Of a stretch of DNA of 33,744 nucleotides, positions 31,959 through 33,572 are shown one piece after another. The first letter of the stretch is position 1; every line of letters begins with the position of its first letter. The position numbers were made by a program, and so were the translations under genes. This stretch comes from a virus (lineage: Duplodnaviria > Heunggongvirae > Uroviricota > Caudoviricetes), in IMG/VR virus record IMGVR_UViG_2778261543_000005. One strand, written 5' to 3'. The notes beneath the pieces are model-generated. The model had not been told where the DNA came from. It saw only the letters and a list, made by a program, of their open reading frames with translations, and made no database searches.

Positions 31959-32513
31959 ATGCTTATTGGCTATGTACGTGTGTCAACAAATGACCAGAAC
32001 ACAGATCTACAACGTAATGCGCTGAACTGTGCAGGATGCGAGCTGATTTTTGAAGACAAGATAAGCGGTACAAAGTCCGAAAGGCCTGGACTGAAAAAAC
32101 TGCTCAGGACATTATCGGCAGGTGACACTCTGGTTGTCTGGAAGCTGGATCGGCTGGGGCGTAGTATGCGGCATCTGGTCATTCTGGTTGAGGAGTTGCG
32201 CGAACGAGGCATCAACTTTCGTAGTCTGACGGATTCAATTGATACTAGTACCCCAATGGGGCGCTTTTTCTTTCATGTGATGGGTGCCCTGGCTGAAATG
32301 GAACGAGAACTGATTGTTGAACGAACAAAAGCTGGACTGGAAGCTGCTCGCGCACAGGGACGAATTGGTGGACGTCGTCCCAAACTTACACCAGAACAAT
32401 GGGCGCAGGCCGGGCGATTAATTGCATCAGGCGTTCCTCGCCAGAAGGTGGCGATCATCTATGATGTTGGTATATCGACACTGTATAAGAAGTTTCCGGT
32501 CGGAGATAAATGA
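31959..32513 (+). CDS. pin: Serine DNA invertase, Pin/Gin/Hin family
   Basis: MLIGYVRVSTNDQNTDLQRNAL... N-terminal catalytic-serine domain and C-terminal HTH; near-identical by eye to Pin-type invertases. Track ORF begins at an upstream in-frame ATG (31923) that overlaps the crossover region. Confidence 0.9.
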   Translation: MLIGYVRVSTNDQNTDLQRNALNCAGCELIFEDKISGTKSERPGLKKLLRTLSAGDTLVVWKLDRLGRSMRHLVILVEELRERGINFRSLTDSIDTSTPMGRFFFHVMGALAEMERELIVERTKAGLEAARAQGRIGGRRPKLTPEQWAQAGRLIASGVPRQKVAIIYDVGISTLYKKFPVGDK

Positions 32514-32514
32514 A

Positions 32515-32549
32515 ACCGTAGCACGTCGTATGCAAGATCGTGCTGCGGT
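32515..32549. terminator. Hairpin (accgtagcacg ... cgtgctgcggt, 11-bp stem with one G-U, 13-nt loop) between convergent pin and GIY-YIG genes; candidate bidirectional terminator and copy A of a direct repeat
   Basis: Lies between two convergent stop codons with U-rich flanks; shares the 15-mer ACGTCGTATGCAAGA with 33545-33559. Confidence 0.45.
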
Positions 32550-32570
32550 TTATGCTTATCACTTAAAGAC

Positions 32571-33344
32571 TCAAAAATTAGGTGAGTAACGGACCGGGGA
32601 CATAGCTCCTTTTTTTCTTAATTCATCTGGTATTTTTTTTCCAAGATAAAGATTTGCTATTTCAGGTGGGGCTTCTCGACCTTCAAAACCATAGCGAGAA
32701 CTTTGTGTTGCCTCAAAGTCCGGATCCTCGTCCCAGTATTTCATCGTAGGGAAATTTTCACGTGTTGATTTGAGCCATTTATCAGCAATGAAAACCCCTC
32801 GAACGATCCCCCTTACAGTAGCAAGAATGACTTCTGCTTGGCTGGCGCGAGAGACATTAATGCGCCAGCTAAATCGAACCGCATCATAAAGCTCTGAATC
32901 CTTTGCACTTCTGTTAACGGAAATCATTAATGCTTTATGATGAAATGTTATGGTTTCGGGTTGATATGTTGCTATCAACTCTTTGACATGCGCGGCGCCG
33001 AATTCATTGCTGCCAGCACCATTCATGATATTCGTTAACCCAGGGTAGGCATCAATAAGTGCTGCTTCAACTTCGTACGCCGTCTTTTCATCAGTCATTC
33101 CGTGTCGATGGATGACATGGATAACCTCAAGTCCTGCTAACCTTATTTCTCTAATTTGCTTTAGCTTGTTGCTCAGTAACTCGTCATCATCAGTCGCTGC
33201 CACTTCACCGCGCATATGGGCAAATACGCGGTTACCTTTGCCTTTCCCTACATAGAAGGTGCTTCCGTCCCTCGGATCAATCAATCGGTATACATACCAG
33301 CCAAGGTGTTCAATTACTCCAGAAGGAAACTCAGTAATATCCAT
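32571..33344 (-). CDS. GIY-YIG domain nuclease-like protein (about 257 aa) with uncharacterised C-terminal domain
   Basis: N-terminal [28 protein letters not shown] matches the GIY...YIG motif pair. Start placed at ATG 33344; the track start at 33395 is a TTG; neither has a clear RBS. Confidence 0.65.
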
Positions 33345-33531
33345 TTTGCAATATCTATGAATTATTTGTGAGACGTATATTAATGAACATTGCAAGGGCT
33401 CACAACCAGTAGTGTTGAGAAAACCATCGGGGAAATGAGGCTAAGCCTTTGAATTTACATAGTACAAAAAAGATACTTTTCCTCATAATGTGAATTAATT
33501 TTATGTTTCGTTTGATGATTGGACCGGTCTC

Positions 33532-33572
33532 GAAACCCGTAGCCACGTCGTATGCAAGAACGTGCTGTGGCT
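33532..33572. repeat. Copy B of an about 40-bp imperfect direct repeat (copy A at 32512-32549) bracketing the GIY-YIG gene
   Basis: gaaacccgtagccacgtcgtatgcaagaacgtgctgtggct versus gaaaccgtagcacgtcgtatgcaagatcgtgctgcggtt; identical 15-mer core plus flanking similarity. Confidence 0.5.

Follow-up and report, generated by a model that had tools for sequence, protein, structure and literature searches.

The restriction enzyme CMoRE (PD-T4-3) has been known since 2022, its structure and mechanism since 2026. The protein of E. coli O157:H7 is a type IV modification-dependent endonuclease that is specific for 5hmC or glucosyl-5hmC DNA and restricts phages T2, T4 and T6 (PMC12923530). Its C-terminal domain binds 5hmC/5ghmC DNA, and its GIYxY-YIG domain, with a motif defined by residues Y17, Y19 and Y31, cleaves at CN11/N9G between two modified cytosines. 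An autoinhibitory acidic loop keeps the enzyme off ordinary host DNA, and DNA with unmodified C or 5mC is spared (PMC12923530). Modification dependence has been described for CMoRE homologues (PMC12366544), activity in a native host is documented (10.1101/2024.12.20.629700), and constructs of close homologues under a 'native promoter' were active as well (PMC12923530; 10.1101/2024.12.20.629700). The term 'prophage' is absent from the main text of the structural paper (PMC12923530).

Defence systems are known to occupy fixed positions in prophages (PMC9519451). The hotspot detailed in that work is the one of P2; P4 satellites, Mu-like and lambdoid prophages appear there as a group, and the text links no particular defence system to them. 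In the literature found on prophage defence hotspots, neither a slot behind pin or tfa nor hairpin landmarks are described. Gene exchange at stem-loops is known from the promoter-early stem-loops (PeSLs), between which recombination leads to insertion, deletion or replacement of the genes that they enclose (PMC2839356).

The window (the whole stretch of DNA analysed, 33,744 nucleotides) carries a pinE-type serine DNA invertase gene, pin, at 31959-32513 on the plus strand (Pfam Resolvase, E=1.1e-51, and HTH_7), for which homologous RefSeq loci use the name pinE. To the right of pin, on the minus strand, lies a gene of 774 nt (32571-33344) with an ATG start, encoding 257 amino acids; the same 774-nt CDS is annotated by RefSeq in homologous loci. 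Judged from its sequence, this gene is CMoRE / PD-T4-3, a type IV restriction enzyme that has already been characterised. The locus as a whole is read, with good confidence, as CMoRE in an accessory slot of a prophage, in which the repeats around the gene belong to a hairpin family that acts as terminators and recombination joints.

The PADLOC PD-T4-3 model matched the window nuclease over its full length (positions 1-255/256, E=2.4e-140), as did phrog_5356 with E=2e-143. Residues 28-110 matched the LEM-3-like GIY-YIG domain of Pfam (E=2.1e-14); a scan against NCBIfam returned no family match. The window protein shares 253/257 residues (98.4%, E=3.7e-172) with the crystallised CMoRE of E. coli O157:H7 (PDB 9U75) and 219/257 with that of APEC O1 (PDB 9U7U). 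The four substitutions relative to 9U75 are T51A, E55D, Q169K and N197H; none of them falls on Y17, Y19 or Y31, all of which are present, and the N-terminal domain equals that of 9U75 apart from T51A and E55D. The acidic loop is retained with four acidic residues (D52-D53-D54-E55) and reads DDDE as in APEC O1, where O157 has DDDD. Cleavage of 5hmC/5ghmC DNA and restriction of T-even phages are predicted for the window allele by transfer from the 98%-identical O157 protein. The first-pass annotation had proposed a restriction-like defence nuclease, and the PADLOC match and the identity to 9U75 agree with this. Its suggestion that the C-terminal domain reads a DNA modification was also correct, in that 5hmC/5ghmC reading has been published for the 9U75 protein (PMC12923530), and its concern that the catalytic GIY-YIG residues might be missing is answered by Y17, Y19 and Y31.

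The region upstream of the gene (33345-33520, minus strand) was kept together with CMoRE in every context aligned and has a GC content of 34.6% against 50.3% for the window. From the ATG to the second repeat copy the spacer measures 189 bp, where about 190 bp had been stated before. A sigma-70 promoter on the minus strand (TTGTGA at 33400-33405, a 17-nt spacer, TAATAT at 33377-33382) is put forward as a candidate, because it was read by eye and its 8/12 score lies under the threshold of the consensus promoter scan, which returned no minus-strand promoter in 31900-33744.

Gene and upstream DNA lie between two imperfect direct repeats of about 40 bp (32513-32551 and 33533-33572), as had been claimed. 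The gapless core of the repeat comprises 27 nt (32522-32548 and 33544-33570, 93% identical) and extends leftwards to about 38-40 nt if two 1-nt indels are allowed; over 40 nt the similarity of the copies falls to about 85%. Shuffled sequences would be expected to give 0.05 occurrences of the 15-mer ACGTCGTATGCAAGA, and the window has exactly two. The first base of copy 1 is also the final one of the pin stop codon. The copy separates the convergent genes pin and CMoRE and forms the hairpin that had been noted there, with arms at 32513-32525 and 32539-32551 and a 13-nt loop. Its folding energy is -27.1 kcal/mol for the plus-strand RNA (z=-5.9) and -19.8 kcal/mol for the minus-strand RNA (z=-3.6). 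Copy 1 is probably a bidirectional terminator for pin and CMoRE and the left homology breakpoint of the cassette. A consensus terminator scan of 31900-33744 found none, a miss that is uninformative since the hairpin loop exceeds the 8-nt limit of the scan; the T tract is also interrupted. A likeness of copy 1 to the 3' terminal hairpin of the Rfam sRNA CssrB stayed below threshold (32.4 bits, E=2e-4), and a literature search on CssrB gave nothing relevant. Copy 2 is a degenerate member of the family that folds no better than shuffled sequence (z = -1.2 and 0.07).

Copy 2 runs directly into a conserved end block (33573-33691) consisting of a non-coding spacer of about 65 nt followed by a dinI-like gene remnant (last nine codons and stop, 33639-33668, minus strand). 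Since the two are contiguous in cargo-less sites as well as in the Qin, lambda, UTI89 and EC25 prophages, copy 2 is assigned to the end block and not to the cassette. The end block is 76-77% identical to the end of the Qin prophage, and in locus L006 and many other genomes the corresponding stretch carries an annotated DinI-like CDS. Elsewhere the block carries other annotations, i.e. a 'capsid protein' fragment by PGAP and a 'hypothetical protein' in some lambda records. A small protein encoded by the end block was considered and rejected, as an indel disrupts the frame in Qin and the loci do not share the same stop; the block is treated here as putatively non-coding sequence with a dinI-like 3' remnant. 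Beyond it, and outside the feature, the prophage is interrupted by the left end of an IS5-like element of the ISKpn26 type (33693-33744, plus strand), whose 52 nt recur unchanged in strain FY10, at the IS end that precedes the ISKpn26 transposase gene; a related locus (L001) runs on without interruption at this position.

The hairpin was found in 5231 of the 5426 complete E. coli genomes, at one to nine places in each (median 2, maximum 9) and with roughly 13,000 copies overall, and every one of the nine distinct contexts inspected lay in a prophage. REP/BIME-type repeats are dispersed over core intergenic regions, with tens to hundreds of copies in each chromosome. With a median of two and a maximum of nine places per genome, and with prophage DNA in each of the nine contexts, the hairpin is not REP-like, and the objection that the repeats could be ubiquitous host REP-like elements does not apply. 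Among 25 hairpin variants, 86.7% of cells are paired and three pairs show compensatory change, a modest covariation among variants related by descent. The TATG of the 13-nt loop is invariant in these 25 variants and more conserved than a plain terminator needs, which may point to a further or another role that depends on sequence. On either side, the hairpin adjoins many different flanks. A scan of contigs (596 Gb) with the 15-base core TATGCAAGANCGTGCT recovered a true hairpin in one of 120 loci, in Shigella flexneri; the pattern is too unspecific.

The Qin prophage carries the hairpin too, and the hairpin and end block of strain FY10, used as query, are 85% identical to positions 24162-24357 of lambda. 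Since a related hairpin directly follows lambda tfa, the lambda gene ea47 is bracketed by two hairpins. Two-hairpin brackets around unrelated cargo were also seen in the EC25 and UTI89 prophages, and in loci L147 and L197 a third copy brackets ImmA/HTH/BRO-N genes. The repeats reported around the nuclease gene are real, but they represent a general prophage hairpin, present in lambda as well, and no signature of a CMoRE cassette.

The cassette (window 32560-33530) was present in 853 of the 5426 complete E. coli genomes, and in only 134 of about 850 cassette-bearing genomes is it flanked by both repeats. Its GC content is 41.8% against 50.3% for the window. Its contexts include a position behind pin, one behind tfa in a lambdoid prophage and, in O157, one beside a genuine serU attR; CMoRE is the sole gene common to these pin-adjacent, tfa-adjacent and serU-adjacent contexts and is a single-gene system. 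Compared with the window, the lambdoid prophage has another left arm of copy 1 and another flank to its left, but the same right arm and CMoRE flank. In about 160 E. coli genomes, pin, hairpin and end block form one contiguous piece of 93-96% identity that is free of cargo, and this empty site carries an apparent hybrid of the two hairpin copies. Other genes found after pin encode a SIR2 protein, DUF4145, PIN_4 and Ppl, or are mcrA. The suggestion of an exchangeable slot behind pin is supported by the cargo-less sites, by the same cassette in other prophages and by other cargo in the slot. As had been stated for e14, the K-12 element has pinE and then mcrA; it was examined as a possible source of the repeat and contains no hairpin, which means that the hairpin is not required for cargo after pin. 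Several uncharacterised genes adjoin hairpin copies in other prophages; cargo of unknown function includes proteins of 215, 502, 312 and 343 aa and the DUF4145 protein.

At its right end the cassette terminates in 19 nt of the anticodon arm of tRNA-Ser(CGA), GGACCGGTCTCGAAACCCG (33521-33539), recognised by alignment to K-12 serU. In the O157 loci the cassette end runs on into 71 nt of serU 3' sequence and 278 nt of serU-flanking host DNA (96% identity). Three junction types have this right end, and all of them start after ...GAAA(A)CCG, which is also found at the base of the hairpin. By alignment, the cassette is bounded on the right by serU-like sequence and not by the hairpin.

Homology breakpoints suggest that cargo may be exchanged by recombination at the hairpin, and each hairpin most probably serves as a terminator in both directions and, in addition, as a joint for recombination over short homology. 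E. coli temperate phages would keep this family at the edges of accessory genes lying on the strand opposite to tfa or pin. The travelling unit is a low-GC, single-gene segment of 1 kb in which CMoRE is accompanied by its upstream region and a probable terminator hairpin; it occupies the accessory region after the tail-fibre/invertase module. Copy 1 would terminate both CMoRE and the converging pin transcript, and copy 2 would be the terminator that in cargo-less phages directly follows pin, downstream of the dinI-like gene. By cutting hydroxymethylated T-even DNA, CMoRE would protect the lysogen from T-even phages. Homologous recombination of the Red or RecA type within the roughly 40 bp would swap, insert or delete the cargo between copies. 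Such recombination would be possible because the same 40 bp or so recurs in lambda, Qin-like and e14/SfV-like phages, and it would explain the breakpoints inside the hairpin. The second joint may have formed at the short match GAAA(A)CCG, common to the serU att core and the hairpin base. Precedents are the PeSL cassettes of phages of the T4 type (PMC2839356) and the exchange between lambda and defective prophages that Red mediates over short diverged homology (PMC3945230). A further-reaching proposal is that the hairpin with its conserved 13-nt loop is a dedicated exchange joint across phage families, a temperate-phage counterpart of the PeSL, releasing hairpin-bounded circles or deletions with defence genes for capture; we regard this as rather doubtful. 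If true, any phage with one copy (lambda-like, Qin/Rac-like or e14/SfV-like) could capture hairpin-bounded circles, and the tail-fibre-distal region would be a shared marketplace for defence genes.

The serU-like end of the cassette could also mean that the second repeat owes its place beside the cassette only to an integrase-related event at an att core of the serU type, as an attP-like arrangement or through secondary-site recombination, with no role of the hairpin in exchange. The 19 nt identical or nearly so to the serU anticodon arm, their continuation into genuine serU and host flank in O157-type loci, and the start of the three junction types after ...GAAA(A)CCG are what would be expected. 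However, such an event leaves unexplained the left junction inside copy 1 and the two-hairpin brackets of lambda, EC25, UTI89 and L147/L197, where the cargo is unrelated and serU sequence is absent, and no serU-specific integrase was identified in this analysis; we consider it unlikely. Dedicated site-specific recombination sites, attC-like or Pin targets, by which the nuclease gene would be actively mobilised, are suggested by the neighbouring recombinase gene pin, by the imperfect palindromes with their strongly conserved loop, by the hybrid appearance of the empty site and by the many different flanks meeting at the hairpin. An integron-type cassette, with attC and an adjacent IntI at attI, was rejected: the neighbouring recombinase is a serine invertase, no IntI integron integrase was seen among the window ORFs inspected, and the hairpin also occurs without the invertase in lambda and Qin-type ends. 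A Pin/Gin/Hin recombination site was rejected as well. The Pin crossover site of the window, TTCTCCCAAACCAACGTTTATGAAAA (31879-31904), is the 26-bp boundary of the invertible segment; it has no second match within three mismatches in the whole window, and the hairpin does not resemble it. Moreover, pin is absent or oppositely oriented where the hairpin occurs in the lambda, Qin-type, UTI89 and EC25 regions, the two copies share only about 85% of 40 nt, and the cassette ends on the right in serU-like sequence instead of a hairpin, so that active mobilisation of this kind is very unlikely.

It seems extremely improbable that the gene encodes a selfish homing endonuclease of the GIY-YIG type whose own insertion created the repeats as a duplication. 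The gene is free-standing, low in GC and flanked by repeats, one PHROG family of homing endonucleases matches it weakly (E=0.0021), and its jumbo-phage homologues are annotated as 'putative homing nuclease'. The near-identical O157 protein, however, is a modification-dependent restriction enzyme that leaves unmodified DNA uncut (PMC12923530). No intron (Rfam), intein or disrupted target gene was found, the CMoRE gene being intergenic between pin and the end block, which also settles the earlier reservation about an intron- or intein-associated homing endonuclease. Empty sites and lambda already have the repeat as a single copy, and the repeats are diverged, unlike a fresh target duplication. 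An accessory slot between hairpins that act as terminators and recombination joints is retained as the preferred reading.

Compared with described systems, the gene itself adds nothing new. CMoRE/PD-T4-3 of O157:H7 (PDB 9U75/9U8D) and APEC O1 (9U7U/9U7Z) belongs to the same family, with the single-gene organisation, the GIYxY-YIG motif, the acidic loop and the 5hmC/5ghmC-sensing C-terminal domain, and the added value over the published work is the genomic context, which is modest. McrA of K-12 e14 differs, being of the HNH type, annotated as methyl-directed and without sequence similarity to CMoRE; its gene also shares the strand of pin and lacks hairpins at its sides. The post-invertase position holds different type IV restriction enzymes, McrA in e14 and CMoRE in the window prophage. 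The cassette resembles the morons and defence hotspots of prophages (P2/P4; Vassallo et al. 2022) as an accessory gene, presumably with transcription of its own, that separates genes which are neighbours in related phages. It is inserted between sequences that are contiguous in the cargo-less sites of about 160 genomes, it deviates in composition (GC 41.8% vs 50.3%), and it has a strong 3' hairpin and a candidate promoter matching by eye at 8/12 positions.

The PeSLs resemble the hairpin as short conserved regulatory stem-loops flanking non-essential genes in plastic regions (PMC2839356). They differ in combining a strong promoter with the stem-loop, in being numerous per genome, in occurring in lytic phages and in the mini-circles demonstrated for them. 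The b region of lambda, with ea47 between tfa (orf-194) and ea31, has the same architecture as the CMoRE slot: tail-fibre assembly gene, hairpin, opposite-strand cargo with its upstream region, and hairpin with conserved block. It differs in its cargo, ea47 instead of CMoRE, in having no invertase, and in the tfa-proximal hairpin, whose loop has diverged and whose stem carries a compensatory change. The slot is marked by the conserved hairpin around lambda ea47 and around unrelated cargo in other prophages, and the same 1-kb unit, which retains a 19-nt fossil of a serU attachment site, has moved between e14/SfV-like and lambdoid prophages. If the hairpin promotes exchange, it would be a simple landmark for accessory and defence genes in E. 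coli prophages.

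By every sequence-level criterion, the 257-aa ORF at 32571-33344 (minus strand), which converges with pin on the hairpin between them, belongs to the CMoRE/PD-T4-3 family of nucleases, and a homing endonuclease reading was rejected. The GIY-YIG motif reported at its N-terminus in the first-pass annotation corresponds to a LEM-3-like GIY-YIG domain (Pfam, E=2.1e-14). The PADLOC model for PD-T4-3 matches the protein over its whole length (E=2.4e-140), and phrog_5356 was a further match. In a PDB comparison, 253 of the 257 residues were identical to the 9U75/9U8D chain and 219 of 257 to 9U7U/9U7Z. 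Y17, Y19 and Y31 are retained and the acidic stretch reads D52-D53-D54-E55; four substitutions (T51A, E55D, Q169K and N197H) distinguish the protein from that of O157.

CMoRE binds and degrades DNA with 5hmC or glucosyl-5hmC and spares DNA with C or 5mC; its cleavage is described as CN11/N9G, requires two modified cytosines, and in its presence T2, T4 and T6 plate about five orders of magnitude less efficiently (PMC12923530). Modification dependence was demonstrated independently for a 48%-identical homologue (PMC12366544), and PD-T4-3 proved active both in a natural isolate of E. coli and in K-12 when driven by its native upstream region (10.1101/2024.12.20.629700). Judging from its near-identity to the characterised protein, the product of the window gene is predicted to restrict phages with 5hmC or glucosyl-5hmC DNA. 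The earlier suggestion of a restriction-like defence nuclease is thus borne out by the full-length PD-T4-3 match and the identity to the 9U75 chain, while the suggestion that the C-terminal domain reads DNA modification was a correct guess, already demonstrated for characterised CMoRE (PMC12923530). Full-length homologues with 38-45% identity were also found in jumbo phages of Serratia (Moabite, 2050HW, BUCT660 and others), Pectobacterium, Pantoea, Klebsiella (N1M2) and Pseudomonas (OBP), where they are labelled homing nuclease or hypothetical protein (records H161-H177). They may serve lytic phages as a weapon against rivals whose DNA is modified.

A temperate phage makes up the window: its early region encodes a repressor of the cI type, a CII-like protein and a replication protein, the terminase and capsid are of the HK97 type, and the contractile tail and its baseplate are Mu-type. 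The tail module ends with YmfQ, the tail fibre, tail-fibre assembly genes, alternative fibre and assembly genes on the opposite strand, and pin (31959-32513, plus strand; Resolvase and HTH_7 domains). This order, including the layout of the invertible segment, matches e14 of K-12, in which mcrA follows pinE, as the first-pass annotation had stated for e14-type prophages. At least 80% of a 1.8-kb query with pin and the nuclease gene was covered in 556 of 5426 complete E. coli genomes. A crossover-type site for Pin, TTCTCCCAAACCAACGTTTATGAAAA, lies upstream of pin at 31879-31904; the observation on it also concerns 30440-30560. No second site was found within 3 mismatches of TTCTCCCAAACCAACGTTTATGAAAA anywhere in the window, so that the invertible tail-fibre segment may be locked or use a degenerate left site. 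At the junction of early and late genes, a 443-aa KAP-family P-loop NTPase (8708-10039, minus strand, opposite to its neighbours) gave a full-length match (E=4.5e-177) to PDC-S20, a candidate defence family in PADLOC, and weaker ones to PifA and QatA; this gene is probably the prophage's second piece of defence-type cargo.

As first noted, the nuclease gene and about 190 bp upstream of it are bracketed by imperfect direct repeats. The gapless core of the repeat is 27 nt long with 93% identity, and the window contains exactly two occurrences of the 15-mer ACGTCGTATGCAAGA, where 0.05 would be expected. Copy 1 (32513-32551) starts directly at the pin stop codon and forms the hairpin proposed between pin and the nuclease gene, with a 13-bp stem and a 13-nt loop; on either strand its fold is much more stable than that of shuffled sequence (-27.1 kcal/mol with z=-5.9; -19.8 kcal/mol with z=-3.6). 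Copy 2 (33533-33572), 189 bp upstream of the ORF, does not fold better than shuffled sequence. Across 25 distinct hairpin variants the stem is kept (86.7% of cells paired, with compensatory change at three pairs), and the loop is also conserved, with TATG invariant. In Rfam the sole match, at 32.4 bits, fell short of the gathering score (76) and was to the terminal hairpin of CssrB, an sRNA family from Shigella; a CssrB-type loop is present in the tfa-proximal hairpin of EC25.

The repeats are not specific to the CMoRE cassette. A search of host genomes, as had been advised, placed a 51-mer around copy 2 in 5231 of 5426 E. coli genomes, at 1-9 places per genome (median 2), and all nine distinct contexts inspected were prophage DNA; host REP elements were rejected on these grounds. 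Integron attC sites were likewise rejected as the identity of the repeats, as were Pin sites after comparison with the crossover site. At the right end of Qin (K-12 and B) the hairpin lies about 240 bp inside the ydfJ junction and homology continues about 85 nt past it. In EC25 it occurs in a lambda-type prophage beside bioA, where two hairpins bracket a methyltransferase and a diguanylate cyclase, and in UTI89 in a prophage that ends in dinI beside prfC, where two hairpins bracket two hypothetical genes. The hairpin and adjoining end block of strain FY10 showed 85% identity to lambda 24162-24357 (J02459; L215 2601-2796), between ea47 and ea31, and a related hairpin, CCGCAGAACG-loop-CGTTCTGCGG, with a compensatory C-G to A-T change, directly follows the stop codon of tfa (orf-194). 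Since ea47 lies on the strand opposite to tfa, members of this hairpin family enclose it just as they enclose CMoRE in the window. The lambda record gives a recombination point at 24389/24390. Two loci have a third hairpin copy, which lies downstream of copy 2 at a distance of 2.5 kb and so encloses an ImmA/IrrE-HTH pair together with a BRO-N gene: L147 (8266-8333), where the start of the end block follows, and L197 (8256-8286), which ends at 8287; hairpin-bounded units can therefore stand in series.

The block of about 85 nt to the right of the hairpin (window 33573-33638) is 76-85% conserved among lambda, Qin and e14/SfV-like prophages and appears to be non-coding; PGAP names it a 'capsid protein' fragment. 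The 13-nt hairpin loop beside it is nearly invariant. The distal end block corresponds to the 3' terminus of a minus-strand dinI-like gene, of which 9 codons are left in the window (stop at 33639-33641). The first 52 nt of an IS5-like (ISKpn26-type) element (33693-33744) follow, inserted at 33692/33693 after TTAG in the conserved end block. Related prophages have no interruption at this site; in one of them, L001, two small ORFs, an ImmA/IrrE-HTH pair, a BRO-N gene and ssrA come next.

The position after pin is an exchangeable cassette slot, as initially suspected, on three lines of evidence: empty sites, the same cassette in other contexts, and other cargo. An artificial join of the pin 3' end, one hairpin and the DNA right of copy 2 matched contiguously in about 160 genomes at 93-96% identity. 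In these, a single well-paired hairpin and the end block come straight after pin; further on lie a dinI-like gene with an integrase at dusA (L006), an HNH and AAA-ATPase pair with an FRG-domain gene (L007, 4599-8232) or host DNA (L008). The cassette segment 32560-33530 was present in 853 genomes. In AR_0081 it follows tfa of a lambdoid prophage (gpJ-lom-stf-tfa), with a cytosine methyltransferase and type II endonuclease beside ssrA after it, and in O157:H7 strains it follows pinE, its upstream region adjoining a tRNA fragment. Among 80 IMG/VR loci with close Pin relatives, pin was followed by CMoRE, by nothing, by e14-type mcrA without any hairpin, by a 936-aa SIR2-domain protein (L142, 776-3586), by a PIN_4 protein with neighbouring genes, by a DUF4145 protein set between pin and a hairpin-end block-dinI-int-dusA series (L199, 4585-5280), or by proteins of 215 or 502 aa. 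A Ppl-like ATPase (PADLOC, 9e-110) lies right of the end block in L183 (5994-8330). The cargo around hairpin and end block in other prophages (HNH/AAA, FRG, SIR2, Ppl, DUF4145) is defence-like. Four proteins there, of 215, 502, 312 and 343 aa, have no family match.

All contexts have in common the stretch that starts with the right arm of hairpin 1 and ends in ...GATGATTGGACCGGTCTCGAAA(A)CCG. Lambdoid and pin contexts have different sequences up to the end of hairpin 1's left arm and the same sequence from the loop or right arm onwards. The loop reads ...AAGATCG in hairpins joined to CMoRE and ...AAGAACG where the hairpin adjoins the end block. At the empty site, a left arm of the copy-1 type is paired with a loop of the copy-2 type, as would be expected from recombination inside the shared 15-mer. 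The right cassette end holds a 19-nt fossil of a tRNA anticodon arm (33521-33539) matching tRNA-Ser(CGA) serU. In O157-type loci (L009, 5956-6304) it runs on into 71 nt of serU 3' sequence and 278 nt of serU-flanking chromosome at 96% identity, and is a genuine attR. One O157 strain was inspected for its other prophage end, which is at thrW; a later rearrangement between prophages must therefore have taken place. After ...GAAA(A)CCG, 13 loci continue into serU sequence, nine, including the window, into full hairpin 2 and the end block, and seven into a truncated hairpin and the distal end block. Because the hairpin base also reads GAAA(A)CCG, the copy-2 junction looks like the result of recombination at this short match; it could have arisen through such microhomology, through secondary-site activity of an integrase or from an arrangement resembling attP. 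The two-repeat arrangement is the minority form, 33400-33691 being covered to at least 80% in only 134 complete E. coli genomes.

We propose that hairpin 1, the gene and the 189 bp upstream would be transcribed independently, as one unit, in the direction of pin. The GC content of this unit (41.8%) is below that of the window (50.3%), and a candidate promoter, TTGTGA-17-TAATAT, read by eye and below the scan threshold, lies about 32 nt upstream of the ATG. Hairpin 1 would most likely terminate both the pin and the CMoRE transcripts, and hairpin 2 would play the corresponding part for the dinI remnant, the next unit on the CMoRE strand. Homologous recombination within the 40 bp common to these phage families would then swap cargo between them, which would explain together the empty sites, the hybrid hairpin, the varied flanks and the varied cargo. 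Against this model, however, copy 2 folds poorly, the loop is conserved beyond what a terminator needs, and e14 has cargo after pin without a hairpin.

There are two precedents: recombination between copies of PeSL stem-loops in T4-type phages yields indels and mini-circles (PMC2839356), and lambda exchanges DNA with the defective prophages Rac, Qin and DLP12 in a Red-dependent manner on short, diverged homology (PMC3945230). Vassallo et al. 2022 located defence systems in prophages, naming Mu-like and lambdoid ones collectively (PMC9519451), and the word 'prophage' is absent from the main text of the CMoRE structural paper (PMC12923530). The gene is an already known kind of system; what is new are minor details, namely the serU fossil and the hairpin-marked slot shared with lambda's b region, which do not amount to a new kind of system.
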